Of a stretch of DNA of 50,786 nt, positions 17,975 through 38,795 are shown piece by piece; within the stretch, counting starts at the first letter, position 1, and every line of letters begins with the position of its first letter. The position numbers and the translations under genes are program-made. The notes beneath the pieces were generated by a model, which was not told where the DNA came from, did not search any database, and was given only the letters and a program-made list of their open reading frames with translations. Source of the DNA: Bradymonadia bacterium (GTDB lineage Bacteria > Myxococcota_A > Bradymonadia > UBA7976 > UBA1532); contig JBKAGE010000011.1 in the NCBI GenBank assembly GCA_046290225.1, positions 1 through 50,786 on the forward strand, given 5' to 3'.

Positions 17975-17977
17975 AGT

Positions 17978-19117
17978 TCAGTCACACCATCCATCGCCGT
18001 TGGTGTCGAGGCCGTAGATGTCGATGGTCCACTCGGTGCACACCCGGCCGGACAGATCATAGAAGATGATGTCGATGCCTTCGTCAGTATCGACGCTCAC
18101 CTGCAAACCTTCATCCGTGTCTTCCCAAGCAGTGCACTCCCGGCAGCCCATGTAGACGCCCTCTTCTTCGATGTCGTCATCGTCGAAGCCCTCGCCGATG
18201 TCGTCGTCGAAAGTGTTGTCGAGCAGATCGATGTCGTCGCACAGCTGCGCTGCATTGACCTTGTCGGCGAGGGTCTTGAGCAACGCATAGGTGCCTGCGG
18301 AGACCACGCCGAGGGTGGCCAGAGCGAGCGCCTGGCCGCCCACATAGATTGAGGGTGCCAGAATGACCGGATCGATGAGGCCGGCACCGATGGAGAGCGT
18401 GGTGGAGTTGCTCGAGATCAGAAACGCTGCATAGCCACCCACTGCGGTGGAGATGCTGCCAATGATGAAGTCATTGCCCAGATAGTCGACGAAGTGTTCA
18501 CAGAAGGTCTCCCGATCCGAGGCCGAGAAGAGCTCCAGATCGGCCTGCTCTCCACCAAGGTACACACCATCTGAGTCGTAGTGGCCCACAGTACGGCGGC
18601 TGGTGGTCACTTCGAGGAGGCTGTATCCCCGATGCTCTGCATCTACACGAGTGCTGCCGATCCGACGCTTGTATTTTCCGAGATACATGTCGAAGCGGCC
18701 AGTGGCCTCTCGATCTCCGTTGTCGATCGTGAACTCCGAGACTGTCTTGAAAGCCATCTGATGGCCGTTGATACAGCCACTGCCGCCATCACAGGCTTCA
18801 TCTTTGAGCATCACGACCTCAGATGTTTGTCTGAGTCGATCACCTGAGGACGAGCTGCTGGTGATGGTCGTGTAATACAGATCGCACACCTCTGCCTGCT
18901 CACACGGGCCGAACTGCTCCACCTCAACGCCATCGGTCAGGTTGCTCTCGATCCAGCTCTCAGATCGGCAAGCGTCATCGAACATGACCCGGTCGCCGAT
19001 GCATGATGTGGCCCGGACTGCATCCTGATTTAACAACGCCCCCGGGTTGCCGAGTTGGGCATGACTCTGGGTCGACACGCACGCGGCGAGCACAGTCAGT
19101 GTAAGGAACTTATACAT
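17978..19117 (-). CDS. Secreted acidic hypothetical protein with an internal hydrophobic region
   Basis: GGAG RBS before ATG 19117; signal peptide ending SHA; hydrophobic Gly/Ala stretch; Asp-rich tail ending DTNGDGWCD. Confidence 0.65.
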   Translation of the reverse strand: MYKFLTLTVLAACVSTQSHAQLGNPGALLNQDAVRATSCIGDRVMFDDACRSESWIESNLTDGVEVEQFGPCEQAEVCDLYYTTITSSSSSGDRLRQTSEVVMLKDEACDGGSGCINGHQMAFKTVSEFTIDNGDREATGRFDMYLGKYKRRIGSTRVDAEHRGYSLLEVTTSRRTVGHYDSDGVYLGGEQADLELFSASDRETFCEHFVDYLGNDFIIGSISTAVGGYAAFLISSNSTTLSIGAGLIDPVILAPSIYVGGQALALATLGVVSAGTYALLKTLADKVNAAQLCDDIDLLDNTFDDDIGEGFDDDDIEEEGVYMGCRECTAWEDTDEGLQVSVDTDEGIDIIFYDLSGRVCTEWTIDIYGLDTNGDGWCD

Positions 19118-19252
19118 ATGGTTCTCCTGCTCTGGTGATTGATGTGCCTCGACAGGCACCCACAGAAGACATTCGAGGGGATGTTTCCGAATCTGACTGG
19201 CGTATGCGTGTTTCGTGTTGAAATGCGTTGGTGTTGTCGGTACACACTGGCT

Positions 19253-19708
19253 ATGGGCCAACATGTACAACGCGTCGAATTCTACAGCGTGCAAGGGGAG
19301 TGGGGGGAGTTCTCCAACTTCGCCGAGTACCCCATTCGCCTTGCGGGCAAGACCTGGTCATCGGTGGAGCACTACTTCCAGGCGATGAAGTTCAAGGACA
19401 AGGCCCTGCAAGAAAAGGTGAGGCGCACCAGGACGCCGAGCCTCGCCGCGCGTATGGGCCGTGATCGCAAGCTGCCCCTGCGTCGCGACTGGGAGTCGGC
19501 GAAGGTAAACGTCATGCGCGATGCGGTGCGGGCGAAGTTCACCCAACACGACGATCTTCGGGCGCTGCTGCTGAGCACGGGGGATGCGCGCATCATCGAG
19601 CACACTGAGAACGACGCCTATTGGGGCGACGGCGGTGATGGCCGGGGGAAGAACATGCTGGGGCGCATCTTGATGCAGGTGCGTGCGGAGTTGGAGAGAG
19701 TCGAATGA
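19253..19708 (+). CDS. ybiA: NADAR family protein (YbiA-like)
   Basis: FSNF, SVEHYFQAMKF, KFTQH..L..LLLSTG, IIEHTENDAYWGDG and GKNMLGRILM. Confidence 0.9.
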   Translation: MGQHVQRVEFYSVQGEWGEFSNFAEYPIRLAGKTWSSVEHYFQAMKFKDKALQEKVRRTRTPSLAARMGRDRKLPLRRDWESAKVNVMRDAVRAKFTQHDDLRALLLSTGDARIIEHTENDAYWGDGGDGRGKNMLGRILMQVRAELERVE

Positions 19709-19783: not shown

Positions 19784-20797
19784 TCAGCACTCCACTGACT
19801 GCAGCGCGGACAACAGCTCAGATGCACTCTGATATCTCTGTGCAGGTGATTTGGAGAGTGCTTTGAATACAATGGCTTCGAGTGCTTCCGGAACACTTGT
19901 GTCGGGACGGAAATATTTGAAGGGCTCTGGCATGCTGTTGAGCTGAGAAAAGAGCATGGCAGCTGGATGCTCTTTGAGTTGTTGAAATGGGTGCATGCCC
20001 ATGAGCAGTACGTACAGGATCATCCCGATGGCATAGATATCAACGCGATGATCGATCTTCAGAGGTGTACGAATCTGCTCAGGTGACATGAACCCAACCG
20101 AGCCCAACAGGGTGTGCTCACGTGTCAACGTGTTGACCCCGTCGATGTTTCCCATTTTTGAGATGCCGAAGTCGAGAAGCTTCATGTGGGGACGACCATC
20201 AGGCCCTTCACAGACAATGAGGTTCTTGGGCTTCAGATCGCGGTGTACGATGCCCCGACTGTGTGCTTCTTCCAAAGCGCTACAGACTTGAGTGATGAGC
20301 TGCACCGCTTCTTCTGCTTCGAGGCATTTTTTCTCTTTGAGAAGCTCGTGCAGAGTCGGTCCGTCAAGATATTCCATACAGATGTATATCTGGCCCTCAG
20401 GGGTAGTGTCCCAGCGATGCACCCTCACTGTATGAGGTGAGCTCAGCATACGCGCCATACGAAACTCGCGAATGAACCGCCTTCTCCTTCGTACCCTGTC
20501 CTCGTTGTCGTCGATCAGGACCTTGAGCGCCACCACCTGACCACCCTTGAGATCGAGAGCATGATAGACGACCGCCATCCCGCCCTGACCCAAACAAGAC
20601 AAGATCCGATAGCGTTGATCGAAGAGCGTGCCAGGAGGTAGAGGTGCGAGGCGCAGTGGGATGCTGAGCTTCGATAGCGCTTGCCCGTTATACTCATCAA
20701 AGGAAGCCGCGTCCCCATATGAGAGTGTTTGCCCTTCCTGAATGGTCTGACCACAATCATGGTGGTACGGGTACACTGCACGGATGTGAGCGTTCAT
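19784..20797 (-). CDS. Soluble Hanks-type Ser/Thr protein kinase
   Basis: LGQGGMAVVY, VALK, HRDLKPKN, LDFG, FMSPE and DIYAIG; no TM or sensor domain. Confidence 0.9.
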   Translation of the reverse strand: MNAHIRAVYPYHHDCGQTIQEGQTLSYGDAASFDEYNGQALSKLSIPLRLAPLPPGTLFDQRYRILSCLGQGGMAVVYHALDLKGGQVVALKVLIDDNEDRVRRRRRFIREFRMARMLSSPHTVRVHRWDTTPEGQIYICMEYLDGPTLHELLKEKKCLEAEEAVQLITQVCSALEEAHSRGIVHRDLKPKNLIVCEGPDGRPHMKLLDFGISKMGNIDGVNTLTREHTLLGSVGFMSPEQIRTPLKIDHRVDIYAIGMILYVLLMGMHPFQQLKEHPAAMLFSQLNSMPEPFKYFRPDTSVPEALEAIVFKALSKSPAQRYQSASELLSALQSVEC

Positions 20798-20860
20798 GTC
20801 ATCTCTCTTGAGTCGGGCAGGTGGTAGGGGGTTAGACTGCTTGTATGATCCGTGTGGCGC

Positions 20861-22177
20861 TCAGCGCCAGGCTCTCTCCATGGGGCGCGAGCTCATGAGC
20901 AGTGCAGAGGTCTGCTCTGCATGGAGCGCCCTGATGGGCACGGTAGGTGGAATATAGATCGCGTATCCCGATCCACACCCTTTCACCGTGCATCCGAGCA
21001 TTGAAGACTCTTGTTGCCCAGAGCCAGAGAGCAGTATGGGGTGATCATGACGAGCGGTGCGTATACCCTCAATGTGCTCGCCACCCCCAATGTCGATCTG
21101 TACGGAAACGCTCCCATCCAGAATCGCGAAGACGCCCTCCAGCGTGTCGTTCTCTTTGAGCAGTGTCTCACCATCAATAAAGCGAGGGGTGTAGTTCCGT
21201 GGGTCAGACACGACGGTTTGTACTGCTTCCGAGAGGCTCAACGCCCCAAGCCTTGGGGTACCAGACTGAGGGTTGCTTGGCAGCGCCAGAGTCATGGTGA
21301 GCAGCGATTGCACCCGACGCTCAAGGTAGAGCCATTGCAACATGGAGGACATTTGCTGGCCGCCTTGCTCTGACTGCAACTCGTCCAGGAGCGAATATGG
21401 CACTTTCCAGGCTTCGATGGGTGACATGGCCACGCAGTCTGCTGTGCGATCTCGATCGACTGACAGCCACCCCATCTCTCCGATCACGTCGCCTTCGCTG
21501 CGATAGCACACAAACCGGCGATGTTTTTGAAAAGGCGCCCAGACTGCCACCTGGCCACTCCGAAGAATATAGAGCGCTGTTGCAGGGTTGCCTGCCACGG
21601 CCAGGTGCTCGCCGGCCTGGTAGCTGAGTGCTTCGATTTCATCGGCCAAACGCGCTTTGAGATCATGAGAGATGTGCTGAAACAGTGGATGAGCGGTCAC
21701 CTGAGTCAGAGGGGTTGAAGCCCGAATCAATGCCCTGGGGGCATTTCGGTCTGCGAAGCGCTTCCACGCAGGGGAGGGGGCATGAGCGGTGATGGCTGCA
21801 AGATGGCGCGCCTCGATCTCAGGATCACCGAGGGCGTCGCCAATCTGCATACCCTCGGCGTGGATCTGACACGCGAGCTCTTTCTCGCCCAAGGCCACCG
21901 CCATCCCGCCTACCCACTCGAGCCCCCTGGACCGGACTCTGGGAAACCCGTCGAGCATGGCGAGCAGCTGAATGGACCGGGCAAGCCCACTGGCTGTGGG
22001 GTGTGTGGCGAACCGCTGTAGTGCACTGAGCGCGAGGTTGGCCTGCGAGCCCTCAGGGGGCTCGTCGATGACTGGAGCTGCGCCCTGACGTGTACGCGTG
22101 ATTCGATAGACCCCCTGCATGATGGAGCCCACCGCTCTGGAGAAGGCGCCCTGCTCTGCTTCCGAATGCGTCGACAT
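20861..22177 (-). CDS. Cyclic-nucleotide-binding protein (helical N-terminus, one intact and one degenerate cNMP domain)
   Basis: LYILRSGQV...GDVIGEMGW...RTADCVA phosphate-binding cassette; second domain GETLLKEND..GVFAILDGSV lacks a clear cassette. Confidence 0.78.
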   Translation of the reverse strand: MSTHSEAEQGAFSRAVGSIMQGVYRITRTRQGAAPVIDEPPEGSQANLALSALQRFATHPTASGLARSIQLLAMLDGFPRVRSRGLEWVGGMAVALGEKELACQIHAEGMQIGDALGDPEIEARHLAAITAHAPSPAWKRFADRNAPRALIRASTPLTQVTAHPLFQHISHDLKARLADEIEALSYQAGEHLAVAGNPATALYILRSGQVAVWAPFQKHRRFVCYRSEGDVIGEMGWLSVDRDRTADCVAMSPIEAWKVPYSLLDELQSEQGGQQMSSMLQWLYLERRVQSLLTMTLALPSNPQSGTPRLGALSLSEAVQTVVSDPRNYTPRFIDGETLLKENDTLEGVFAILDGSVSVQIDIGGGEHIEGIRTARHDHPILLSGSGQQESSMLGCTVKGCGSGYAIYIPPTVPIRALHAEQTSALLMSSRPMERAWR

Positions 22178-22207
22178 TCTGTCCCCATATCTGCTGTTCA
22201 ATGAGGA

Positions 22208-22234
22208 AACGAGGGCCAGGGTCGGAGCGTGACA
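22208..22234 (-). promoter_or_regulatory. Putative ECF-sigma promoter for the cNMP-kinase genes
   Basis: Minus strand TGTCAC-N17-CGTT between the sigma gene stop and the cNMP gene start. Confidence 0.45.
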
Positions 22235-22266
22235 ATTTTTGATTCGTTTTTGCGAATGGTGTGCAG

Positions 22267-22890
22267 TCAGCGCAGGTCGCTGTGATCGATGCGGCTCAAT
22301 GCCCGGCTGATCCGCTTACGTACGTTGGGCGCCGTCATACCCTTGCGGGCGGCGATTTCTGCGCTGCTCTGGCCCTCGATGAAGCGCATCTGCACCAATT
22401 CGCGATCAAGGGGGTTCAGCCGCTCGAGCAACCTGTGCACGGCGACACGTTGTTCTTCCGCTGCAAGCAAGTCATCTGGCAAAGGCGTCGGGGGGACAGG
22501 GGTTTGCGCATGCTGCCTGAGACCGGCCTGATGATGCGCGCGCTGGCTCGCCTTGACGTCGAGGGCGCGGTTGCGGATCGAGGTTCGGAGGAAGCTCAAG
22601 GGCTTGCCTTCGATCATCCGCTGGAGGAACTCTGCCTCGCCGAGCAGTCCCGCGAACTTGCACAATACGTCTTGAACGACGTCCTCTGGGCCCACTGAGG
22701 CGAGCCCTCTGACAGGATGGGCAGCCTTGAGCAGGGTGGGCAGGCAGAGCGGTACGATGCGCTCCAAGGCACGCTCGATATGGGCCATGGGGGCGTCGGT
22801 GGATAGGCCCCTGGCGCGCTCCTCGACGAGCACGGCGCTGACCCACTCGTTGGTGGGCTCAGGGGCTGGTGGGGGGGCGTGGTTGGCCAT
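22267..22890 (-). CDS. ECF-family RNA polymerase sigma factor
   Basis: Region 2 EDVVQDV...FLRTSIRNRALD; region 4 LNPLDRELVQMRFIEGQSSAEIA...NVRKRISRA. Confidence 0.88.
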   Translation of the reverse strand: MANHAPPPAPEPTNEWVSAVLVEERARGLSTDAPMAHIERALERIVPLCLPTLLKAAHPVRGLASVGPEDVVQDVLCKFAGLLGEAEFLQRMIEGKPLSFLRTSIRNRALDVKASQRAHHQAGLRQHAQTPVPPTPLPDDLLAAEEQRVAVHRLLERLNPLDRELVQMRFIEGQSSAEIAARKGMTAPNVRKRISRALSRIDHSDLR

Positions 22891-23055
22891 GGCGTGGGCA
22901 TTCTGTCAGAGCTCTTTGGTGAGAGCCAACCCGTTGAAGGTGAAAGGCGCATTGAGAGGAATTGATGAAGCTCTTCTCGCATTTGAGTCCCTTGACGGAC
23001 GGTCAGACCGCCTGATAGCTGTCACCGCGTGTCACTGTTGACCTTGGAGGGTAGG

Positions 23056-24048
23056 GTGTCGAACAAAGAGAAGATAGATGCCATCGATGTCTTCAATCGC
23101 GCCGTTGGAGAGGTCTCAGAAAAAGGGTCCAGAGATGCTGCACTGATCACAAATGGGATCGTCAACATCATCAGCCGTGCCGGTAAGGTACGACGAGGGC
23201 AGTCGGTCATCGGAGGTCTTGCGGAAGAAGACTCTGATGAAGAAGAGCAGCAAGATGAGGGTGAGCAAAAGACGCTCAAAGAGTTCAACCTGTTACTTGA
23301 TGAGGCAAACGAGCAGATCGCCCACATTTTTCACGAGTTTCATGGGTTGCCGCGTCCAGCTGCTCTCTACGAAGGGATACCCCTCCGTCGTCGGCTCGAA
23401 GCCGAGAGGGCAGTCCTTGCCAATGTGCATGACATGCTGAAGCGTAATCGAGGCTCTACTTACAGTCAGTTTGCCGCAGCGATGCGGCGAGGGTTGATGA
23501 GAGAGCCCGAGGTCGAGTATTCGGACTCGGGTGGTGTGCAGAGCCGCTCATTCTCGGTTAAGGCATCACCTATGCTTATCCCGGTGGGGGTGAGCGACAT
23601 CGCGCCATATATACAAGACCCACGCATATGGCGTGACGCTGTGGGGAGCGTAGAGTCGGCGATTCTGTCTAACATGAGTCGCGGCCCCACAAGGAGAAGG
23701 TTCAATCTGCGCAAGGTCACGAACCTGCTCTGGCCCTTCTTCTTGAATGCGTATCGATTTGATGACTCGATATACATGAAATATGAGTCCTTGCCTCGCC
23801 GAAACCCAGACTATTATCTATTGGAACACGAGTTGGTGCAGAGCCACGACGAGAAACTTCTGCGAGACGAGGGCTATATCGTCGCGCAAGGTGACGAACA
23901 CTCCACCATCGTGGCTGTTCACAAATCCATCAGGATCCGAGGGGGTGTGTTCGAAGAGCTCGAGAACACGGTGCCGATCGTCATGCAGGCCACGCTGATG
24001 ATGTGGGTCCTCCAAATCGCGTATCATGCGCGCTCCAGCAGGGTTTAA
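23056..24048 (+). CDS. Hypothetical protein with a probable START/SRPBCC helix-grip C-terminal domain
   Basis: GGAGG RBS before GTG 23056. Strand, then helix (VSDIAPYIQDPRIW), beta strands and a long C-terminal helix. Fold is inferred only. Confidence 0.5.
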   Translation: MSNKEKIDAIDVFNRAVGEVSEKGSRDAALITNGIVNIISRAGKVRRGQSVIGGLAEEDSDEEEQQDEGEQKTLKEFNLLLDEANEQIAHIFHEFHGLPRPAALYEGIPLRRRLEAERAVLANVHDMLKRNRGSTYSQFAAAMRRGLMREPEVEYSDSGGVQSRSFSVKASPMLIPVGVSDIAPYIQDPRIWRDAVGSVESAILSNMSRGPTRRRFNLRKVTNLLWPFFLNAYRFDDSIYMKYESLPRRNPDYYLLEHELVQSHDEKLLRDEGYIVAQGDEHSTIVAVHKSIRIRGGVFEELENTVPIVMQATLMMWVLQIAYHARSSRV

Positions 24049-24052
24049 TCGC

Positions 24053-26305
24053 ATGGCCGCAAGTGAAAAGAAGAACGTGTTGATTCTCGGAGGCGGGCTG
24101 AGCGGTCTCGCTGCGGCCGCAGCTCTGTCTCAGTTCGAGGAGCAGATTCAGGTCACTGTGGTCGAAAAGATGCCTTACCCAGGCGGCAAGGCTGCAAGCA
24201 CGCGGACGAGAAAGAAAGACGCTCCAGCTGAGCCTGACCGGATCATCGAGCACGGCCTGCATGTCCTCATGGGGTTTTATGAGAACACCTTTTGCCTGCT
24301 GCGTCAGGTGTATACCGCAGAGCCATACGGCTACTCTCGGGAGGACTGGCCCACCGCGCTGAGCCACATGTTCGAGGCGGACTACTCCATGACCATTAGC
24401 GAGCCTGGGCAAGATGGGCGCCCCTCACGGTGGAGACGCTTTGAGCTCATGAAGAGAGAAAGCCGCCCCGGCGAGCTTTGCTCAGCAGCAGGCTCGATTG
24501 TTGGTGATGGGGCGACGCTGACTGGAGCAGGTTTGCTTGTAGAAGAGCCATCTGCACAGGAGCCTGCCCTGGAGACGCGGATCCAGATCTACGAGATGCT
24601 CGAGCATATTCTGATCGCGACTCACACGGTCGCTTGTCAGGGCGCGATAGGTTTTTTGAGCAGCGAGCCACCAGGTGACGCCTTCGGTGTTTTGACTTCT
24701 GCGCTCTCCGAGGGGCAAGATCTCGATCTGAAGAGCGTCCCTGAGGGGATCGAACCGAGCGCCGCCGTCGCCATCTCTACGCTCTCATACGCCGCGCGTT
24801 ACTGGAGAAGGCAAGCCTGCACCGACGATTGCAAAGACAAAGATGAGTTTCGGGACGTTCTGAAAGATCTGCTGTTCTACCTCAGACTCTTTCGAGACAT
24901 TTTCTATCTGACCTTGAGGCCAGATGGAGATATTGAGCGGTCAGACGTATGGCACATCATCGACGTGCTCTCGACCACAGCCATCGGTCTCATCGCCGAT
25001 GAGGTGTACCTACCCGAACCAGGTCAGGGAGAGCTCGGTGAGTCAGAGTGGATCGAAAACCTGGCCGGCCTCGACGAACGCTCCTACCGAGGCTGGCTGC
25101 GTCACCACGGCGCACATGAGCCGACGCTGAACTGTGGCGTGATCCGCGCGATAGAGAGCGGCCTCTTCGCCCTCGAGCACGCCAAGGCAAAGGGCGGCAG
25201 GCGAGGGGTGGGCGCGGGGACCTTCATTTATGGCGCTTGGCGGATGTTGTTCGGGTACTCTGGTAGCCCGTTCTACAAAATGAAAGGTGGCATGGGCGAG
25301 ATCGTCATCGCCCCCATCTTCAATTATCTACAGTGTGAGACATCGACGCGTTTTTGGCTGGATGCAGACATCAAGTCCATCTCCATCAAGACGGAGGCGG
25401 GCGTCTCGACGGTCGACGAAGTGAAGGTGGCTCACGCTGCAAACAATGAAAGACCCGTAGGTAGAGGGTTGCCCGGTACGCATCGAGTGCCCCTTGAGCA
25501 CTTCCCGGAGATCTGTACTGGGTTTTATGGGAGGCAGTTTTGGTACGCAACGGACCAGCTGGAGGCTTTACCCAACGAGACCAGCCTTGCCGCAGGGGAA
25601 GACTTCGATGTCGTGATCCTCACGCTGCCGCCTGCTGTGAGCAGGCCGATGCTGACGTCACAGAGCTTGCCCGAGAGCCTGCGCAATGCCGTCAATGGCA
25701 TCGAAGACACGGCGGTCCTTTCTGCGCAACTCTGGTACGAGAGGTGTGTGGATGAAGACGGAAAACCCTGCGAACGAGAGGAGGATCAGAAGCACGCGGT
25801 CGTCTCCGGCGATGTGGCGCCACTCGACGTGCTCGCTGACATGAGCCACCTGAAGGATGCAGAGCCTGGGTACGGCTCAGTGGTTTATCTCTGTGGCGGG
25901 TTTGCAGACGGTCCCTCAGTTGAACCTCTATCTGTTTCACCGGGTCAGATGCTCAATCAATGGGTTCAGAGTGGGGGGGCAGAGAAGCTCAGCCGCTTGG
26001 TCGAGACGAGCACATCGGGCCAGCTTCCCAAGCTCGTGGGGTCAGTCGCTTACAAACGAGACCAACCTCACGAGCGCTACGTGTTGTCTACACCTGGCAC
26101 GCGAGTTCATCGTATTCGGGCCGACGAATCAGGGGTCAGCAACATGATGGTGGCGGGGGACTGGACCCGCACCGCGCTCTCCGTTGGCTCCGCCGAGGCG
26201 GCCGTGGTCTCTGGTTTGTTGGCTGCAAAAGCAGCACTTAAGCAAGTGGGCCTGGAAGAGCTCGCCAAAAAGATCAAAGTCTACAAAGAGCCTGGAGAGG
26301 GGTGA
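24053..26305 (+). CDS. Large FAD/NAD(P)-dependent oxidoreductase (amine oxidase / carotene desaturase superfamily)
   Basis: ILGGGLSGLAAA, GGKAAS, IEHGLHVLMGFYENTF, GGMGEIVIAP and C-terminal AGDWT...EAAVVSG. Confidence 0.85.
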   Translation: MAASEKKNVLILGGGLSGLAAAAALSQFEEQIQVTVVEKMPYPGGKAASTRTRKKDAPAEPDRIIEHGLHVLMGFYENTFCLLRQVYTAEPYGYSREDWPTALSHMFEADYSMTISEPGQDGRPSRWRRFELMKRESRPGELCSAAGSIVGDGATLTGAGLLVEEPSAQEPALETRIQIYEMLEHILIATHTVACQGAIGFLSSEPPGDAFGVLTSALSEGQDLDLKSVPEGIEPSAAVAISTLSYAARYWRRQACTDDCKDKDEFRDVLKDLLFYLRLFRDIFYLTLRPDGDIERSDVWHIIDVLSTTAIGLIADEVYLPEPGQGELGESEWIENLAGLDERSYRGWLRHHGAHEPTLNCGVIRAIESGLFALEHAKAKGGRRGVGAGTFIYGAWRMLFGYSGSPFYKMKGGMGEIVIAPIFNYLQCETSTRFWLDADIKSISIKTEAGVSTVDEVKVAHAANNERPVGRGLPGTHRVPLEHFPEICTGFYGRQFWYATDQLEALPNETSLAAGEDFDVVILTLPPAVSRPMLTSQSLPESLRNAVNGIEDTAVLSAQLWYERCVDEDGKPCEREEDQKHAVVSGDVAPLDVLADMSHLKDAEPGYGSVVYLCGGFADGPSVEPLSVSPGQMLNQWVQSGGAEKLSRLVETSTSGQLPKLVGSVAYKRDQPHERYVLSTPGTRVHRIRADESGVSNMMVAGDWTRTALSVGSAEAAVVSGLLAAKAALKQVGLEELAKKIKVYKEPGEG

Positions 26306-26308
26306 CGC

Positions 26309-27130
26309 ATGGATCTATTTTCAAAATGGGACACCATTGTAGAGAAGCTGAACGGGCTCGGTTACGAGTGGACGACGCTCGAGCGCGCCGCGAGAGATGC
26401 GGGGGTGATCACTGAAGCCTTCGCGCTCAAAAAGCTCTACAGCATCGTGCCCGACAAGCAGGCCTTGGCCCGAGCATGGTTCTTGGGCACGCTGAGTCTC
26501 GTCATCAACAATTACAAAGCCGACATCTGTGATGAGCGGCCAACGTTGGGGGATGCCCTGGAGTCGGTCATCTCCGATCTCATAGACAAGCTCACCATAC
26601 GCAGAGAGTTTTCTGTGGCCGCCATCCGTGACGCACAAGCGAGTTGGTCCATGCAGGGGCCAGAACTGAAGGAGTTTCGGCGGCAGCTTTGGGAAGAGAT
26701 CGACAAGCTGCTCAAGCTCGTCGATTGCCCACCAAAGGACGGGGGTTGCACGCCGAGCTACATCTTGCCCTCCCTCAGGTTGACTGACCCGCTGGCGAAT
26801 GGCCCTGAGGCGATGAGGGAAAACTTCATCAACTTTCTCATGGTCTTGCTCGCAGCGACGCTTCGGTACTGGGCCGAAGATACTTCTCCCGGATCTCTCT
26901 ACACACACCGCGTGTGTCGAGACGGGGTTTGGCTGCTGGCAGGGGTGCTAAGACCTGAGGCGGAGTGCCCTGAGGACAGCCCTATCCTTCGGGGGCAATC
27001 TCTCTTCAACACGTTGGGAGATCGTCAACTCACCAGCCTCGTCAAGTCGGTAGTACCTCTTCATATGGAAGACTATGTCGTGCCATTGCTCAAAGATCTC
27101 TTGAAGGGGAAGTGGCCCTTTGAAAGGTGA
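26309..27130 (+). CDS. TetR-fold protein (TetR/COQ9-like)
   Basis: GYEWTTLERAARDAGV...LYSIVPDKQAL resembles a TetR HTH; LRYWAEDTSPG..T resembles the TetR_C/COQ9 W..D.S motif. Confidence 0.55.
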   Translation: MDLFSKWDTIVEKLNGLGYEWTTLERAARDAGVITEAFALKKLYSIVPDKQALARAWFLGTLSLVINNYKADICDERPTLGDALESVISDLIDKLTIRREFSVAAIRDAQASWSMQGPELKEFRRQLWEEIDKLLKLVDCPPKDGGCTPSYILPSLRLTDPLANGPEAMRENFINFLMVLLAATLRYWAEDTSPGSLYTHRVCRDGVWLLAGVLRPEAECPEDSPILRGQSLFNTLGDRQLTSLVKSVVPLHMEDYVVPLLKDLLKGKWPFER

Positions 27131-28412
27131 CGTCCCCACCGCCGCATGGCGGCGCAACCTGCTCGCGGGGCAAGGCGCCGCGCGGGTCGCCTCTGACAAA
27201 GCGCTCGCGTCTTTGGCGCGTCCGTTCCGCAGCGCCGAGTCTCAGGCGCGTGCAGATGCTGCCCTCGACGCGAAGACCGCTGATCGTATCTTCGAGGTGC
27301 TCTCGAGGCTAAGGGGGAGCGCGCTCAAGGTGGCGCAGTTCTTCTCGATGGAGACCGACCTCGTGTCACCAGAGATGGCCAAGCGGCTACGACAGACGTG
27401 TGATCGGGTGCCAATGATGAACTCTGCCTTCGTCCGCACAGAGGTCAGGCGAGCGCTTGGGCACAGCCCAAACCGGATGTTCGTGCAGTTTGACCACAAG
27501 GCCATGGCCGCGGCGAGTATCGGCCAAGTGCACGCCGCCACGACCCACGATGGCCGATCCGTCGTGGTCAAGGTGCAATATCCAGGCATCGAACAGACCA
27601 TTATCAACGACATGCGCACCTTAAGTCGCCTGATACGCCTCACCTCCAACTCATCCTATCTGTTGTCACTGGTCGACGAGGTCAAGGCGCGGCTGCTCGA
27701 AGAGTGCGACTATCATCTCGAAGCGGAGCAACTGGCGTGGTTTGCCGCACATGGCCAAATCGAGGGCGTCAGTACGCCCGAGCCTGTGCCCGAACTGAGC
27801 AGCTCCAGGGTCCTGACCATGACCCGGATGAGCGGTGAGCCGCTGTGCGAGTGGCTGCAAGGTGACCCTTCTCAGGCGCAGCGCGAGCGCGTCGCGGGCC
27901 GGGTGCACCAGGTCTTCGTCGATGCGATTCGGCGTCACGGACGGTTACACGCAGACTCGAACCCCGGGAACTTCTTGTTCACCGATGACAAGGTCTCAGT
28001 CCTCGACTTCGGGTGCGTGCGCGCCTTGAGTGAAGACTATCGAGATCTGGTCTTGAGGCTGTGGCGAACCTTCGCTCACCCTGAGCCGAGTGAGCTGTGG
28101 TCGCTCTACGAGCAGATGGGCCTGTTCAAGAATATGCCCACGCATGAGGCAGAGGCGATGGAGGCTGAGCACCTGCTACCCTTCAGGGAGTGGCTCGCCG
28201 AGCCCCTTCGAGTCGAGCGGTTCGACTTCGGGGCCGATCCAGACTTCATCAGCCGAGGCCGTGACCTATTCTTCAGTTTTATCAAGCACCGAGCGCACTT
28301 GGGGCTTCGATCCGAGTTCGTGCTCGTCAACCGAGCGCTCTTTGGCATGTATCGATTGTTCGAGCAGCTCGGTGCCCGCGTCAGCCTTCGCGAAGCGTGG
28401 CTTGAGTCATGA
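27120..28412 (+). CDS. ABC1/UbiB (COQ8-like) atypical kinase
   Basis: LRGSALKVAQ (KxGQ variant), AAASIGQVH, VKVQYPG, ECDY..EA, HADSNPGNF and LDFGC. Confidence 0.92.
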   Translation: MKGDVPTAAWRRNLLAGQGAARVASDKALASLARPFRSAESQARADAALDAKTADRIFEVLSRLRGSALKVAQFFSMETDLVSPEMAKRLRQTCDRVPMMNSAFVRTEVRRALGHSPNRMFVQFDHKAMAAASIGQVHAATTHDGRSVVVKVQYPGIEQTIINDMRTLSRLIRLTSNSSYLLSLVDEVKARLLEECDYHLEAEQLAWFAAHGQIEGVSTPEPVPELSSSRVLTMTRMSGEPLCEWLQGDPSQAQRERVAGRVHQVFVDAIRRHGRLHADSNPGNFLFTDDKVSVLDFGCVRALSEDYRDLVLRLWRTFAHPEPSELWSLYEQMGLFKNMPTHEAEAMEAEHLLPFREWLAEPLRVERFDFGADPDFISRGRDLFFSFIKHRAHLGLRSEFVLVNRALFGMYRLFEQLGARVSLREAWLES

Positions 28413-29743
28413 AGACCGTTATCATCGGTGGCGGGATTGCGGGGCTGACCGCCGCATGGCACCTCGCGAAGAGCGGCCACCGTGACGTCATCGTGCTTGA
28501 GAGCGAAGAGTATCTGGGTGGAAAAGCAGGAGGCTGGAGAGACGCCGACGGTGACGTGATCGAAGCTGGTCTGCACATCTGCTTTGCGCACTACACGCAT
28601 TTGCTCTCATTGATGCGCGAGCTGGAGGTGGAGGACAAGGTCGCGTGGCAGCCAGCGGCCTTCACCTATGCCTTCGAGGATGGCTCCACATTCGAACTGA
28701 AGATGCCCCCTCTGCCACCACCTCTGCCAGGTGTGGCAGTCATGCTGCGTTACCCTGGGCTGCGTATGCGCGATCGGGTGGCGTCGATTCGAGCTGCTGC
28801 AGAAGCCGCCACCGTTCCATGGCGCTGGCTCGAGACTCAGGACTCGATCTCGTTCAAGGCGTGGCTGCGCAAGAGGCTGGTGCCAGAGGCGGTCGTTACC
28901 CAGCTCTTCGAGCCGATGACCAGGGGGCTGACCTTCATCAACCCCGAAGACGTCTCGGCGACAACAATGTTGAGATACGTCCGTCAGGTGGCGAGGAGCC
29001 GACAGGATTTCGGCATCGGGTTCTTCCAGGGGGGCGTCTTCGAGGCGCTGATCGAGCCCCTCGTGCAGCGCCTCCGAGCGCTCGGGGTTGAGGTGAGGGT
29101 CAACCAGACGGTGCAGCAAATCGAGCTCGGTGAGGAGGCTGTGACCGGGGTCCTCATGAGCGATGGTGAGCGGATCCCCACAGAAGCTGTCATCTGTGCG
29201 ACTCCGGCGCATGTGCTGCCCACACTGATCTCCGCGGCCGATCTCTCAAGGTTTAGATTGCTGTGGTCGCTGCGATTGTCGAGTGTGCCCGTCATCTCGG
29301 CTCAGGTCTGGCTCGATCGGCGTGTGGACACCTCACCGGGACTGTGGTTCTTCCCAGGGGCAATGTTCAACAGCGGCGCCGACGTGACCCGGTACGATCA
29401 TCCCGACGATCAGCACGCGCCATCGGTCTTTCATCTCGTCATTGCCCCTGCGGCCGAGTATATCGAGCGCACCACCGCAGAGCTCGAGTCTCTGGTCACG
29501 GGTGAGCTGCGGGCGCGGGTGAGGTCCACCTGGGGGGCCAAGGTGCGCAAGGTGTCGATCGTGCGTATGTACCGCTCCATTCACTTCTCCGAGCCTGGCT
29601 CGGAGAGGCTCCGCCCCGCCTGCGAGACCAGGGCCCGAGGCCTCTTCCTCGCTGGCGACTATGTCAAGACCGGTCACAGCTGCAACCTCGAGGGGGCGGT
29701 CTCGTCGGCGCTCGCCGCTGCGCGTGCCGTCATGGCCACCTGA
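28409..29743 (+). CDS. Phytoene/zeta-carotene desaturase-like (PDS/ZDS/HpnE family) FAD oxidoreductase
   Basis: IIGGGIAGLTAA, LGGKAGGWRDADGDVIEAGLHICFAHY, FINPEDVSA and LAGDY...LEGAVSS. Confidence 0.85.
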   Translation: MKTVIIGGGIAGLTAAWHLAKSGHRDVIVLESEEYLGGKAGGWRDADGDVIEAGLHICFAHYTHLLSLMRELEVEDKVAWQPAAFTYAFEDGSTFELKMPPLPPPLPGVAVMLRYPGLRMRDRVASIRAAAEAATVPWRWLETQDSISFKAWLRKRLVPEAVVTQLFEPMTRGLTFINPEDVSATTMLRYVRQVARSRQDFGIGFFQGGVFEALIEPLVQRLRALGVEVRVNQTVQQIELGEEAVTGVLMSDGERIPTEAVICATPAHVLPTLISAADLSRFRLLWSLRLSSVPVISAQVWLDRRVDTSPGLWFFPGAMFNSGADVTRYDHPDDQHAPSVFHLVIAPAAEYIERTTAELESLVTGELRARVRSTWGAKVRKVSIVRMYRSIHFSEPGSERLRPACETRARGLFLAGDYVKTGHSCNLEGAVSSALAAARAVMAT

Positions 29744-32700
29744 TGAACATCCAGCCAGGTGCTCAGGAGCTGTCGGCCTACTTCCCACGCTGGATCGCTC
29801 AGCCCCTGCTCCATAGACTTCGAGACCACCAGCACCCCTCCATGCATTGGACTGGGGCGGTGCTGTTTCTGGACATCTCGGGCTTCTCCGCCTTGACGCG
29901 GCGTTTCCAGGCAGAAGACGAGCGAGATGGGTTCGGGCGCCTTCAGGGGTTCCTGAACGAGGCCTTCGACGAACTCGCGCGCGTCATCGAGGCGTATGGA
30001 GGTACGTTGCTCACCTTCGTGGGTGATGCCCTTCTGGCGTTCTGGGGGGCCGAGGCGGCTCAACAGCGCGAACGCCAGTTGAGCTGTGCCGCTCGAGCAG
30101 GTCTAGACGCGTTGGGCTGTGTCGATGGGTTGAGCGTGCACGGGAGCGTCGCCTGGGGCGACATTTGTACTGTACTGCTCGGAGGCTACGAAGACGTCTG
30201 GTCACTCTTGAGCGCAGGCGACGCGATCTCTCAAGCGTCCGTGGCAATGACGACGGCGCTTCCAGGGCAGCTGAAGGTCGCCTCTGGGGCGAGATGCGGC
30301 GGCCTTATAGTGGACGACGAAGGCATCCTCCTAGGCGTCGAGGGATCACTGATGCCGCTTGAGGTGCCTTCTACGCCACCGCCGCTTCAGTCTGAGCAGC
30401 TTGTGCCGGCTCATGCTCGAGATGCGGTACTGCTCAATGTGCATTGGGCTGCTCAGCTGAGGACCCTGACCGCTGTATTCGTCAGGCTGGATCATGCCTC
30501 CGTGGCGGATATGAACGCGCTGAAAGCGTTGCAAGCAGTCGTCGAGCGCTCACAACGCACACTCCATGCTCACCATGGGGTCCTGGACCGGCTCAGTCAG
30601 GATGACAAGGGGCTGTGCGTCGTCGCCGAGTTCGGCATGCGAGGGAGCGCGGGGGCCGGCCCGGTTCATGCGTTGCAGTGGGCGCTGGCTCTTCGTGCGA
30701 AGCTCAAGGAGGTGGGGCAAAAGTGTTCAGTGGGGGTCGCGACGGGGCGTATGTTCATCGGCCCAATCGGGGCCAAGGCGCGTCACACCTTCACCGTGAT
30801 GGGCGAGGCGGTCAACCGAGCCGCCCACCTGATGCAATATGCCACCGACGCGATCATCTGTGACGAGGCGACCGCGCGGGGGTGTGATGGTCAGATCGAC
30901 CTACGCAGCGCCAAGACCATCACGTTGAAGCACAGCCACCAAGTGAGCGTATTCGAGGTCACCCAGCTGGGGCCGACGGCGCACAGACCGCAGGTGGAGA
31001 TGATCGGGCGGGCAAATGAGTTCGAGCGTGCCCTCGGTCTATGTCGAGAGCTCTGGGAAGATGGTGGTGGCTTCGCGTTGATCGGTGAAGCGGGCATTGG
31101 GAAGTCGACGCTCATACGACAGATCGTTTCCTCGTTGGGTGAAGAGGCGTTGCCGGTGTGTGCATGCGAGGCGTCGGCGATGACCTCGACTCAGCCGTAT
31201 CGTATTTGGGGGGATGTCATACGACAGATGTTGTCCGAGCGCCTGGAGCTCGGACTCGACATTCACACCGCCCTCGAGAGCATGTTGAGCACCTCTCCCG
31301 AGAGCGTAGAGCTGTTGCCTCTCTTGAACACCGTCTTGGGGACTCGGTTTCCGGAGACGCCCGCGACCGTGCTGCTTGATGGTCAGACTCGGATCGACAA
31401 CACCAAGAACCTCATCGTCAACTTCCTCGAGTGTTGCCCACGTAAGCTGCTCGTCATCGAGGACGCTCATTGGATGGACACCGCCTCCTGGGCCTTGCTC
31501 ACCTTCTCGATGCAGAAGATGGAGCGCTTGGGGGTGGTGCTCGTCATGCGGCCTCGAGGCAGCATCATCGTGGGGGAACGAGTACGCTTCGAGTTAGATC
31601 CGCGTACGAACATATTGGTGTTGGAGGCCCTTGAGGAGGCGCAGGTCGAGGCACTCATCAAAGAGAGTGTGGGCGTGTCGAACGTGCACCCAGAGGTCTT
31701 GTCTTGGCTATACACCCGCGGGCAGGGCCACCCATTCTTTACCCGAGAGCTCCTCGACGTTCTCAAGAGCTCACGATTGATTGACACCGTGGGCGATCAA
31801 CTTATCCGGACGCCTACGCGGGAGGAGCTGGCCAACACACACCTACCAGACACGATCGAGGGTGCGGTGGGGTTTCGTGTAGATCAGCTCCGCGCTCCTG
31901 AGCAGTACGTCCTGCGCGTGGCCAGCGTGCTGGGGCAAAAGTGTGAGTATGGCTACCTGTTAGAGGTGCTTGCCGCCATCGACGTACATGTCGAGCTGGA
32001 CGATGCGCTACGGCACCTCGACGAGGTGGGCCTCTTGAGTGGATCCGCCTCTGAAGAGCTTGTGTTCGTGCACCGCTATGTTCAAGAGGTTGCGTATTCT
32101 TCTCTGCCCGAGGCGCAGAGAGAGGTGGTGCACACCGCTGCGGCGAAGTCTCTTGAGCGAGACTCTACGGAAGGGACAGAAGAGGTTTCTACGCTGGCCT
32201 TCCACTGGCGCCACACGGACAATGACGAGCGGGCGCTTCACTATCTCGAAGCGGCAGGCCGCGCAGCACTGGACGCTGGCGCATATTTCGAGGCGGCGGA
32301 GCACCTCAAACACGCGCTGGAGAGAGACGAGGGCCGCGGTCAGCGAGAGGACGACTTGGTGTCGTCGAGCAGGAGAGCTTCCTGGCTCAGGTTGTTGAGT
32401 GATGCATGGTTCGGCCTCGGAGATGTCGAGCGGTGGGCGACGTCCGCCCGACGGTCGATCGAGGAGGCGGGCTGGTCCGTGCCTCGTCGTCAAGTCGTGT
32501 GGTTGGGTCGATTCTACGGCGGCCTCATTCGTCAACTGGGCCACCGTACACTGGGCCGGTGGCGCCGTCAGGCGCCTGAACGCCTGGGCCACCTGTGTTA
32601 CGAGGGGGCCCTTGCCGCAGGTCGGCTCAGCCAAGCGCAATACTTCTTGCATGCGCCGATCGCGATGGCTGGTGCTGGTCTGATGGCGGTGAACCTCCTG

Positions 32701-33717
32701 GAGAAGGGTGATAGGGCAGAGCCCGTGCCCTCGGCGTATGGCATGTTGGGCGTGGCGTTCGGTATGATGCGGCTGAATTGGCTCGCGCGTTGGTACCTCT
32801 CTGAGCTCGAGCGACGGGCTCAAGGGCGGCCGAGTGAGCTGGCCCTCGGGCTGTTTCACGAGGCGATGTGGCACTCATGTTTTTGTCGGTGGGAGTTCTC
32901 CTATCAAAGTGCAGAGCGGGGAGCCGAAGTCGCAGCATCTGTCGATGCACGTACTGAACTACGGATGCTTCAGACTTTGATTGCGTCAAACCATTTATTC
33001 ACTGGAGAGTATAGGGATAGTGTTGAGCTTATGAGTCGGGTCAGAGCATCTGCAATCGCAGATGCAAACTTACAGCATGAAGGGTGGAGTTACAACGTCA
33101 GTGGGAATGCTTTAGTATTTCTCGGTAACTATGAAGAAGCCCTGATGAGGGCGTCCAGAGCAGTGGAGATCTTTAATCGTCTCTACGATGATATATCACT
33201 GTACATCGCGTTATCGAGGGTGGGGATTGTGAATCTCTATCAGGGCAAGTATCTGTCTTCGGTTGAGTATGCGGACAAGGTTCTTGTACACATCAAAAAA
33301 GGCCTGCCCTCAAGTAACTTGACCTTGGATTCTAACGGATGGATGTGTGAGGTGTTCATCCACCATCTAGAGCGTCAGTCTGATTGTGAAGAGTGGAAGC
33401 GGAAGTCTCGCGCTGCTTTGAGTGAGTTTAGACGGTTTGCATGGGTGTTTCCCAATGGACGTGCCCGATATCTTTATTACAAGGCTCGGTATGCTGCGGC
33501 GATGGGTAAGACGTCAATGGCACATCGGCTCTATGCTCGGTCTTTGAAGGCTGCTCAGCGCTACAATATGCCCTATGATGAAGCGATGGCACTTGCTGGG
33601 TATGCGTCTTGCTCTATGGATAAGAAGCTTCGAGTTGAGAGTTCAGCTCAAGCCCATGCTTTGATGGATGAGCTTGGTGTGCCCTGGCCGCCTACCGTAC
33701 CACGACTTAGCGATTGA
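29743..33717 (+). CDS. Soluble-adenylyl-cyclase-like protein: tandem class III cyclase domains, STAND AAA ATPase and TPR-like region
   Basis: C1 LFLDISGF..TFVGDA; C2 DDKG..GVATG..FTVMGEAVNRAAHLM; Walker A GEAGIGKS; Walker B LVIEDAHWMD; GHPFF; FVHRYVQEVAY; helical C-terminus. Confidence 0.9.
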   Translation: MNIQPGAQELSAYFPRWIAQPLLHRLRDHQHPSMHWTGAVLFLDISGFSALTRRFQAEDERDGFGRLQGFLNEAFDELARVIEAYGGTLLTFVGDALLAFWGAEAAQQRERQLSCAARAGLDALGCVDGLSVHGSVAWGDICTVLLGGYEDVWSLLSAGDAISQASVAMTTALPGQLKVASGARCGGLIVDDEGILLGVEGSLMPLEVPSTPPPLQSEQLVPAHARDAVLLNVHWAAQLRTLTAVFVRLDHASVADMNALKALQAVVERSQRTLHAHHGVLDRLSQDDKGLCVVAEFGMRGSAGAGPVHALQWALALRAKLKEVGQKCSVGVATGRMFIGPIGAKARHTFTVMGEAVNRAAHLMQYATDAIICDEATARGCDGQIDLRSAKTITLKHSHQVSVFEVTQLGPTAHRPQVEMIGRANEFERALGLCRELWEDGGGFALIGEAGIGKSTLIRQIVSSLGEEALPVCACEASAMTSTQPYRIWGDVIRQMLSERLELGLDIHTALESMLSTSPESVELLPLLNTVLGTRFPETPATVLLDGQTRIDNTKNLIVNFLECCPRKLLVIEDAHWMDTASWALLTFSMQKMERLGVVLVMRPRGSIIVGERVRFELDPRTNILVLEALEEAQVEALIKESVGVSNVHPEVLSWLYTRGQGHPFFTRELLDVLKSSRLIDTVGDQLIRTPTREELANTHLPDTIEGAVGFRVDQLRAPEQYVLRVASVLGQKCEYGYLLEVLAAIDVHVELDDALRHLDEVGLLSGSASEELVFVHRYVQEVAYSSLPEAQREVVHTAAAKSLERDSTEGTEEVSTLAFHWRHTDNDERALHYLEAAGRAALDAGAYFEAAEHLKHALERDEGRGQREDDLVSSSRRASWLRLLSDAWFGLGDVERWATSARRSIEEAGWSVPRRQVVWLGRFYGGLIRQLGHRTLGRWRRQAPERLGHLCYEGALAAGRLSQAQYFLHAPIAMAGAGLMAVNLLEKGDRAEPVPSAYGMLGVAFGMMRLNWLARWYLSELERRAQGRPSELALGLFHEAMWHSCFCRWEFSYQSAERGAEVAASVDARTELRMLQTLIASNHLFTGEYRDSVELMSRVRASAIADANLQHEGWSYNVSGNALVFLGNYEEALMRASRAVEIFNRLYDDISLYIALSRVGIVNLYQGKYLSSVEYADKVLVHIKKGLPSSNLTLDSNGWMCEVFIHHLERQSDCEEWKRKSRAALSEFRRFAWVFPNGRARYLYYKARYAAAMGKTSMAHRLYARSLKAAQRYNMPYDEAMALAGYASCSMDKKLRVESSAQAHALMDELGVPWPPTVPRLSD

Positions 33718-33741
33718 TTCCGAATGTTGGAGGTGAATGCC

Positions 33742-34938
33742 TCATCTTCGAGAGGAGAAGCTAGGTGGTAGGTAGGATAGTGCTCCCCGTATTGAGATTG
33801 TCTCGGATGGAGTTTGGCGCTCGGTGAGCATGTCCTCAAGCGCCCTGCGAAACCCTGAGTGACTACGTGCCGCGAGTGTCAAGGCATCGGTGAGCCAGCC
33901 ATGACTGACGAGTTGCTGCAGGCGATCATAGCCCCGATAGATGGGTGTGAGCTGAGCTATTTTTCGTTGCATGCCTGAAGACAGAGCGACCCTACTCAGT
34001 TGCCCAGAGTCCAACGCATTGAGGGCGACTTGAGCTGCGTATCGACCACACTCAAGTGCTTTGCCAATGCCCTCACCTGTAAGCGCTTGAGTTGTACCTA
34101 TGGCTTCTCCGGCAATCAGGAGGTGATCTCGTGCCAGCGCGGTACCCTTTAGGCTGGTGCGGAGGGGCGCACCCTTGAGTGCTCCTTGCCACTGTACAGA
34201 GCGTAGTGCTGATGGCCTAGCGCTTTTTGCACCCACGAAGTGGTCCCAAATTTCGCGGAGGTTGAATGGGAAGTTGCCTGATGTATCTGCAAAGGCACCA
34301 ATACCAATGTTGAAGAGGCCCCCACCCATAGGAAAGGCCCAGCCATAGCCTGGTTGTAGTGTACGGTCATACCAAACATGCAGTGTATTTTCGGCAAGAC
34401 CTTTGACGACACCATATGTTCGGGCGGCATAGGCTGAAGCTGACGAGCGATGAGGCACACCAAAGCACTTGAGGGCCTTTGTAGATGCCCCAGTGCACAG
34501 AAGTGCAATGGGTGCGTGCAAAGTCTCACACCCCATCTCACCCTCTACAATGACCGAAGCTCGACCTCTATTATCAAAACCAACTGCTCGTGTTTGATCT
34601 AGAACCTCTACCCCTAGAGATTGAGCATGGTGAAGCAAGACTTCATCTAGATCTTGTCTGGCGAGTGAGAGGACGGGCAATTCGAGAGATGTCTGAAAGC
34701 CTCTTGGGGAAGAGAGGCGTATATAGGGGATGGCGTAAGCATGTTGATGTATTTTCGGCAGTAGGTTCAGTGTCTTGAGTGCATGTATTGCATCTGGTAG
34801 CAGAGCGTCACCACACACTTTCGGCCGCGGCGTGCGACGCTGCTCAAGTAGGACTACTTTCACACCATGCTGCGCAAGTGAGATAGCCGCTGCGCTACCA
34901 GAAGGTCCACCTCCGATGATGATCACATCCCACTTCAT
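33742..34938 (-). CDS. Geranylgeranyl reductase family FAD oxidoreductase
   Basis: DVIIIGGGPSGSAAA, RPKVCGDAL, RQDLDEVL, PGYGWAFP and AGEA....ALTGEGI. Confidence 0.88.
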   Translation of the reverse strand: MKWDVIIIGGGPSGSAAAISLAQHGVKVVLLEQRRTPRPKVCGDALLPDAIHALKTLNLLPKIHQHAYAIPYIRLSSPRGFQTSLELPVLSLARQDLDEVLLHHAQSLGVEVLDQTRAVGFDNRGRASVIVEGEMGCETLHAPIALLCTGASTKALKCFGVPHRSSASAYAARTYGVVKGLAENTLHVWYDRTLQPGYGWAFPMGGGLFNIGIGAFADTSGNFPFNLREIWDHFVGAKSARPSALRSVQWQGALKGAPLRTSLKGTALARDHLLIAGEAIGTTQALTGEGIGKALECGRYAAQVALNALDSGQLSRVALSSGMQRKIAQLTPIYRGYDRLQQLVSHGWLTDALTLAARSHSGFRRALEDMLTERQTPSETISIRGALSYLPPSFSSRR

Positions 34939-35176
34939 GCACTCACCTGAGATTGTGTCCTTGAGGGCCTGGAGATGGTTTGATATGAGGTGTAGTAGGC
35001 CTGAAGGCGCTTAGATACGTACCCTGATCCACTCAAGATGTCCTTCAGTTGAATGATTGTTTTGGCTTCGATTATTTTTACTACCATGGCGCTGCCCCTT
35101 GCTCTCTGCTTTATGAACCCATTTTTCAGCGAGTACCACGATTTTGCGTACCCTAACCATGATCACTGTCAGTTGC

Positions 35177-38438: not shown

Positions 38439-38795
38439 CTAGCCCAGCAGGCGCACGTTGTGCCCAGCGTTCAATTGCAGCAGCTGCTGCACAATTGAAC
38501 GCTCGGGCCACGCTTCGCTGAAGCGGCGCATGTACTTGAGGTTGCGGGGCGATAGTCCCTTCATATCGGGGAAGGCCCGTTGAAGGTCTTTTGACAGCCG
38601 GTCGATGACCTTGGCACCCCAGCCCTCAACGGCTTGTCGTTCGAGGATTGCTCGGCCCAGATCCCAGTACAGGAGGGTCAGCGCCTGGTTGGCTGCCAGG
38701 GTGGCTCGTAGCCGTGCGCCGTGGATACAGGCCTTCAGGTCGGAGAGCAGGGCGCTGTAGTTTGATGGAATGACCGGGTTGTCTGAATCGCCCAT
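38439..38795 (-). pseudogene. Truncated YhcG/DUF1016 (N-terminal domain only; PD-(D/E)XK nuclease domain missing)
   Basis: LYWDLGRAILERQ..EGWGAKVIDRLSKDL...GLSPRNLKYMRRF; stops at 118 aa just after GHNVRLL. Confidence 0.75.

Follow-up and report, generated by a model that had tools for sequence, protein, structure and literature searches.

A six-gene core joining lipid-type enzymes to a cyclase-STAND-TPR protein in a Bradymonadia bacterium

Introduction

Contig JBKAGE010000011.1 of a Bradymonadia bacterium carries ten neighbouring open reading frames (positions 19784–34938) in which flavoproteins and other lipid-type proteins lie next to a cyclase-STAND-TPR protein that resembles soluble adenylyl cyclase (sAC). 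The window analysed here is the whole contig (50,786 nt), part of an 8.6-Mb genome with a GC content of 64.4%. The original prediction, made from the nucleotide sequence alone, took the ten genes to be a self-contained circuit that makes a lipid signal and relays it to transcription. The question is which of these genes form a unit, and what that unit may do. The conserved unit is a core of six genes and not all ten. The functional reading proposed below builds on the observed gene content, coupling, recurrence, folds and residues.

The six-gene core and its recurrence

All ten open reading frames are open at the positions at which they were predicted, and the families first assigned to them hold, by Pfam and NCBIfam matches or, for the START and TetR proteins, by fold. 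The six core genes lie on the plus strand and extend over about 10.7 kb. They encode a START-like protein (core 1), a long FAD oxidoreductase (core 2), a TetR-fold protein (core 3), a UbiB/COQ8-like ABC1 protein (core 4), a phytoene desaturase (PDS)-like protein (core 5) and the cyclase-STAND-TPR protein (core 6). Junctions were computed from the open reading frame coordinates and the database start sites of the core proteins. The START gene ends at 24048 and the flavoprotein ATG is at 24053, a gap of 4 bp; a 3 bp gap separates flavoprotein and TetR genes (26305/26309). TetR and ABC1 overlap by 11 bp, ABC1 and PDS by 4 bp, and PDS and cyclase by 1 bp. The operon is thus as tight as was predicted. 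Every core gene except those for ABC1 and the STAND protein is single-copy in its own genome, where 16 STAND genes are present. The mean GC content of the ten genes is 58.6%, versus 63–66% in the flanks, but there is no sharp GC island at the locus because further parts of the contig are also low in GC.

A degenerate motif pattern for the ABC1 subclade of core 4 was run over 185,579 species genomes. It gave one match, in a metagenome-assembled genome of Rubrivivax, which would place the second host in a different phylum. At this locus (L379) all six core genes are found side by side. A 1032-aa (amino acid) START-flavoprotein fusion, TetR and ABC1 are on the same strand and converge on the PDS-like gene and the cyclase-STAND-TPR gene. 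Compared with the window the PDS-cyclase pair is inverted yet still adjacent, and the PDS-like gene directly precedes the cyclase gene. Identity to the window is 29% for the flavoprotein fusion, 22% for TetR, 46% for ABC1, 39% over 439 aa for the PDS-like protein and 30% over 1323 aa for cyclase-STAND-TPR. The START profile matches the N-terminus of the fusion at 99.2%. Two adjacent squalene/phytoene synthase genes are present in the Rubrivivax genome. An unrelated flavoprotein gene is divergent from the START-flavoprotein fusion in L379.

A metagenome search was made with an alignment of the ABC1 subclade, and the best 80 loci were examined. L323 displays the START-flavoprotein fusion, TetR and ABC1 in order, and L299 the flavoprotein, TetR and ABC1 in order; both contigs end at ABC1. 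In L323 a 477-aa protein that has an HExxH motif but matches no Pfam family is encoded upstream of the fusion (positions 1998–3428).

A lack of co-occurrence in other genomes had been named among the outcomes that would refute the original prediction. Co-occurrence is found for the six-gene core, complete in L379 and partial in L323 and L299. It is not found for the four flanking genes, which encode an ECF sigma factor, a cyclic nucleotide (cNMP)-binding protein, a kinase and a geranylgeranyl reductase (GGR)-family protein. The 20-kb locus L379 gives no ECF, cNMP or kinase match; the one cNMP-domain match in the Rubrivivax genome is weak and away from L379, and a GGR homologue (38% identity) is on a separate contig.

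Proteins of the core

Core 6 (positions 29743–33717, plus strand, 1324 aa) is a tandem class III cyclase followed by a STAND ATPase and TPRs (cyclase, AAA_16 and TPR_12 matches). Walker A and B motifs are in the AAA_16 domain, between the N-terminal cyclase and the C-terminal TPRs, as expected of a STAND protein, and the domain order is that of the SWACOS type. The best PDB match of the cyclase is human sAC (E 9e-26). Residues D44, D95, K289, T351, N358, K454 (Walker A) and D574 (Walker B) are kept. With the catalytic residue table for human sAC in PMC12867704 as reference, D44 and D95 are the C1 metal-binding pair (human Asp47 and Asp99), and K289 and N358 the C2 base-recognising residues (human Lys334 and Asn412). 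His362 replaces the alpha-phosphate Arg416, a position at which 40 of 43 family members have Arg. All five cyclase residues are intact in 34 of the 43, and both Walker motifs in all 43. The L379 cyclase keeps the Arg at the position of Arg416 and has an Arg at the Lys position. Judged by these residues, the activity of the core 6 cyclase is suspect and may be weak.

Core 1 (23056–24048, plus strand, 330 aa) has no Pfam match. Its Atlas model (pLDDT 0.50) resembles SRPBCC/Polyketide_cyc proteins (TM 0.79–0.81 by target, 164 residues), so that a START/SRPBCC helix-grip fold with a lipid pocket is predicted. One distant stand-alone relative was found among 1.84 billion representatives, and in the two orthologous loci L379 and L323 the START domain is N-terminal on the long flavoprotein.

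Core 2 (24053–26305, plus strand, 750 aa) has a predicted phytoene-desaturase fold with helical insertions. Rice PDS is the top fold match of the model (pLDDT 74.6), with protoporphyrinogen oxidase 2.6 Z units lower. The protein is a divergent member of an uncharacterised family whose usual partner is an acetoacetate-decarboxylase (ADC)-fold protein. Core 5 (28409–29743, plus strand, 444 aa) is a PDS/HpnE-like flavin desaturase with a homologue in L379. It scores under the equivalog cut-offs of both TIGR02731 (PDS, 248 versus 569 bits) and HpnE (223 versus 283 bits).

Core 3 (26309–27130, plus strand) gives a weak TetR_C_23 match. A fold search returned the TetR fold, with one COQ9 row (TM 0.52/0.66); there is no match to COQ9 PF08511 at E 0.01, and the COQ9 likeness is in the fold alone. 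The TetR N-terminal helix-turn-helix (HTH, PF00440) gives no match in core 3 or its L379 homologue, a weak one in L299 and L323, and a strong one in two of three free-standing TetR relatives scanned. Homologues of core 3 hold the equivalent position in L299, L323 and L379.

Core 4 (27120–28412, plus strand) is a UbiB/COQ8-like atypical kinase-ATPase (PF03109, 182 bits). The best PDB match is COQ8B (E 2e-35), aligned over the full length. UbiB/COQ8 proteins carry a KxGQ motif; core 4 has KVAQ instead, and KxAQ is present in 22 of 22 rows of its subclade, close members of which are 43–49% identical. Its Ala-rich loop reads AAASIGQ. The score is below the UbiB equivalog TIGR01982 (173 versus a cut-off of 488). 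By its ABC1 domain, Ala-rich loop and catalytic motifs, core 4 can be assigned to the UbiB/COQ8 proteins.

A TetR gene is upstream of ABC1 in 76 of the 134 related loci with enough flank, and in 45 of the best 45. TetR_C_23 directly upstream of an ABC1/UbiB kinase (L219–L378) is a widespread two-gene unit of many phyla, and no paper on the pair was found in the literature searched.

Gene neighbourhoods of the related families

Of 301 genomes of the phylum, 31 (the window's own among them) carry the long-flavoprotein family, which also occurs in many other phyla. All 37 non-self loci of the phylum were taken, together with the best 80 of at least 604 loci GTDB-wide; one locus is common to the two sets. 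A STAND gene is within 6 kb in 19 of the 37 own-phylum loci and in 21 of the best 80 GTDB-wide; among 40 regions picked arbitrarily from the same genomes the count is 1. The STAND profile was built from ten of the own-phylum loci; of the 27 that remain, ten have a STAND neighbour, including one (L172) unconfirmed by the gene caller. The STAND partners carry a kinase or a cyclase. With this enrichment and the recurrence in L379, the claim that lipid-type enzymes are coupled to a cyclase-STAND-TPR protein, and not by chance, stands.

An ADC-fold gene is the usual flavoprotein partner (22 of the 37 own-phylum loci and 57 of the best 80 GTDB-wide). The ADC profile has no match in the window's own genome, where START occupies the ADC place. 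Isoprenoid neighbours of the family include polyprenyl synthase (L027, L036, L167, L170), squalene/phytoene synthase (L055, L090), a weakly matched lycopene cyclase (L038) and an MpaB oxygenase (L112). A cNMP domain is fused to an ADC-fold domain in L025 (5440–6813), L039 (7936–9225) and L164 (2802–4178). These fusions adjoin a long flavoprotein, an epimerase and a kinase-STAND gene, plus GAF and cyclase genes in L025 and L039.

Two further arrangements of the flavoprotein family were seen. In Duganella, Janthinobacterium and Pseudoalteromonas (L046, L050–L054, L057, L071 and others) the ADC-fold and long-flavoprotein genes form a fused or adjacent two-gene insert with no STAND neighbour. In L034 (902–12098) a pair of long flavoproteins, of which one has a Rieske domain, is clustered with two CrtI-like enzymes and methyltransferase, SRPBCC and ADC genes.

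In a reverse survey of 40 of the best full-length cyclase-STAND-TPR loci, with part of the neighbours scanned, a long flavoprotein was present in one. A lipid, terpene or UbiE-type enzyme is within two genes in 13 of the 40 by strict Pfam matches (E ≤1e-12; MpaB oxygenase, UbiE-type methyltransferase, KAS III, P450, Pyr4 terpene cyclase, patatin and LPG synthase), and in 27 of the 40 when looser matches, local profiles and evident homologues are counted. A comparable enzyme was present in 3 of 30 controls (30 of the 40 arbitrary regions, for each of which four neighbours were scanned after truncation to 480 residues).

Among individual cyclase loci, L149 (5900–12824) and L150 (6984–7928) have an intact sAC-like cyclase-STAND gene flanked by Pyr4-like membrane terpene cyclases and a P450; an ABC1 gene is also near in L149. 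In L125, L127, L134, L138 and L140, an acyltransferase, FabI-like reductase or KAS III gene and a 150-aa unknown gene are directly before an intact cyclase-STAND gene; this set occurs in several genomes, including the window's family. A lipoxygenase-like gene (weak Pfam match) directly follows an intact cyclase-STAND gene in L129 (11908–14766).

Proposed mechanism and alternatives

The reading we prefer, tentatively and at a little under an even chance, is that the six core genes are a mobile cassette which extracts and oxidises a polyprenyl lipid, and in which the STAND-TPR protein reads the product of the two PDS-fold enzymes. By analogy with the role proposed for COQ8 towards quinone intermediates, the COQ8-like ATPase and its TetR/COQ9-fold partner would extract and present the membrane polyprenyl lipid. 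The START pocket could hand this lipid to the long flavoprotein, to which it is fused in two orthologues, and would so replace the family's usual ADC-fold partner. The PDS-like enzyme would carry out a second redox step. Since the cassette is without a prenyl synthase, the substrate is presumably supplied by the host, and a quinone side chain or phytoene/squalene appears most likely. In the host, crtI, crtB and a prenyl synthase gene are grouped on one contig (C12), and its genome has no squalene-hopene cyclase above cut-off. The product may bind the TPR region, flip the STAND ATPase and free the N-terminal effector, which is a cyclase in the window and a kinase in many relatives. A more general form, doubtful at present, is that bacteria carry a so far undescribed group of lipid-signal cassettes: a COQ8/COQ9/COQ10-like trio would feed a membrane polyprenyl to desaturase-fold enzymes, the product being the ligand that unlocks the STAND-TPR region of an sAC-like protein. 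For the regulatory tail of soluble adenylyl cyclases this would mean a first class of ligands.

Several observations weigh against the preferred reading. One other complete six-gene copy was found (L379). Searches of 30 further genomes from the window's own order and of 250 genomes from the Rubrivivax family gave no member of the ABC1 subclade; because of this the cassette appears rare and is likely mobile. Both complete copies have a deviant cyclase (Arg to His in the window, Lys to Arg in L379). The TetR protein may be a plain repressor, because TetR-ABC1 is a common free-standing pair with an intact HTH elsewhere. The PDS-fold enzymes are near protoporphyrinogen and amine oxidases in Z. There is no STAND neighbour in 59 of the best 80 GTDB-wide flavoprotein loci, many of them from Betaproteobacteria and Pseudoalteromonas. 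The neighbours were classified by hand and post hoc, and the loci, which include kin, are not independent.

The cNMP-ADC fusions, in addition, point to the opposite direction of signalling. STAND-TPR would then sense another cue, such as envelope stress or a protein partner, and the cyclase or kinase output would switch the lipid enzymes on and remodel membrane isoprenoids. This is a serious rival because the cNMP domain is fused to an ADC enzyme in three relatives, where it is beside kinase-STAND genes (L025, L039, L164), and to patatin lipases beside cyclase-STAND genes in two (L139, L161). Of 40 cyclase loci, 4 also have a cNMP domain no more than two genes away, versus 0 of 30 controls. 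However, no core enzyme of the window bears a cNMP domain, both complete copies have an altered cyclase, and the enzymes near cyclase loci vary widely, as expected for signal-synthase/receptor pairs; this direction is a real possibility but a rather unlikely one. The ten-gene loop first proposed, in which a lipid signal, cAMP, cNMP receptor, kinase and ECF sigma factor are one circuit, now appears improbable. In its favour, ECF and core are divergently arranged with some 165 bp between them, and a genome of the same family (L160) unites a prenyl synthase, methyltransferase, cyclase-STAND and kinase-cNMP fusion; such wiring thus exists, though not with the window's genes. But the self-contained circuit is not supported: the three regulators are all missing from the Rubrivivax locus, the GGR homologue is unlinked there, the cNMP protein is an orphan and the cyclase has His362, while a kinase neighbour means little because kinases are near 9 of 40 random regions.

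A role in anti-phage or inter-bacterial conflict, in which STAND would recognise an invader and the lipid enzymes be its effector or arming module, would fit the very patchy spread of the cassette, the low GC content and the nearby genes (a NADAR gene and a DUF1016 fragment in the window, and NERD-UvrD 3 kb from the Rubrivivax copy). Many STAND proteins are phage sensors (bioRxiv 10.64898/2026.01.04.697583). The core, however, is without a nuclease, TIR, pore or protease effector, PADLOC matches are limited to generic kinase, cNMP and cyclase domains, and the genes next to the cyclase family encode metabolic enzymes, so that defence has a small chance of being correct. Chance assembly of unrelated mobile pieces is very improbable. 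TetR-ABC1 and flavoprotein-STAND do occur as separate modules, and gene order differs in Rubrivivax; but two distant hosts share the six genes at 22–46% identity, START and flavoprotein are fused, every junction is translationally coupled, and L379, L323 and L299 largely refute it.

Comparison with known systems

In domain order core 6 is like mammalian sAC (ADCY10) and SWACOS-type STAND proteins, a tandem C1-C2 class III cyclase followed by the STAND P-loop and helical repeats. SWACOS-type STAND proteins were reportedly defined by Leipe et al. in 2004. Within the cyclase domain, which is the part compared, the metal Asp pair, Lys and Asn are shared with ADCY10; unlike ADCY10, the window protein has His at Arg416 and is in a lipid-enzyme operon. 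The SWACOS name is used in PMC8195603. According to PMC12802110 (2025), sAC has a predicted STAND module; that study identified no regulator specific to the full-length protein and leaves room for an unknown metabolite.

MalT/LAL-type regulators, to which core 6 may be likened by analogy, are ligand-gated STAND proteins whose genes accompany the pathway of the metabolite that their TPR sensor reads, but their effector is a DNA-binding HTH and not a cyclase or kinase. COQ10 is a START protein, so that the core, like the coenzyme Q synthome (COQ8/COQ9/COQ10), unites a COQ8-like ATPase, a TetR-fold protein and a START-fold protein. There is no sequence-level COQ9 or COQ10 match. In contrast to the synthome, the core is without ring hydroxylases or methyltransferases, has PDS-fold partners and has a signalling ATPase attached. 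The COQ8 ATPase is possibly coupled to extracting hydrophobic intermediates (PMC10376127).

PDS/CrtP and HpnE give the best family scores for core 5, and PDS the best fold match for core 2; but core 5 is below both cut-offs, core 2 exceeds the solved PDS by about 280 residues, the cassette has no synthase and the host already has CrtI. Pycsar and Avs resemble the locus in a class III cyclase with a cNMP-binding protein and in a STAND-TPR sensor. They differ in that the window has no toxic effector and its cyclase pocket is of the adenine-type sAC kind. PADLOC gave domain-level matches, and no full-length match, to Pycsar/Avs system proteins.

Every core protein is from a known family; the novelty is in the combination, which matches no described system found. 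No description of the six-gene set was found in the literature searched, including the available parts of PMC4558948, PMC12419801, PMC11495197 and PMC9304148. If the preferred reading holds, it bears on the regulation of the STAND/TPR tail of soluble adenylyl cyclases. It would also bear on what UbiB/COQ8 ATPases, among them that of the widespread TetR_C_23-ABC1 pair, do apart from quinone synthesis, and on the products of the large uncharacterised long-flavoprotein family. At about 10.7 kb the six genes are small enough to transfer to a laboratory host and assay.

Flanking genes and other open reading frames

The GGR-family flavoprotein gene (33742–34938, minus strand) is convergent with the core, 24 bp past the cyclase stop. 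It scores above the TIGR02032 (GG-red-SF) subfamily cut-off (169.8 versus 158.8), and under the BchP, MenJ and DGGR models. The GC content at third codon positions is 46%, versus 63–77% in the core genes; for this reason, and because the Rubrivivax homologue is unlinked, GGR is likely a separate arrival.

The other three flanking genes, spaced about 65 bp apart, are transcribed from the minus strand and diverge from the core. They encode the ECF sigma factor (22267–22890; above the TIGR02937 cut-off), a protein with one recognisable cNMP-binding domain (20861–22201; PF00027 at residues 193–275, E 5e-19) and a stand-alone Ser/Thr kinase (19784–20797; PF00069). The cNMP protein had no relative but itself among 8000 scored candidates. 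The kinase has many paralogues in its own genome (104 tblastn rows). In the preferred reading these three and GGR are local additions, perhaps wired in and perhaps not.

Left of the kinase gene (17087–19708) are a YD/RHS-repeat lipoprotein-like open reading frame, a 438-aa open reading frame without a family match, and the NADAR gene. Farther left (11436–15751) are genes for an MrfA-type DEAD helicase with a Zn-binding domain and for an RNase_H_2 exonuclease; between them, on the opposite strand, is a DUF2256/DUF3253 open reading frame. At the right end of the low-GC stretch a lone DUF1016 N-terminal fragment (38439–38903), possibly the remnant of a mobile element, lies by a DUF4303 gene.

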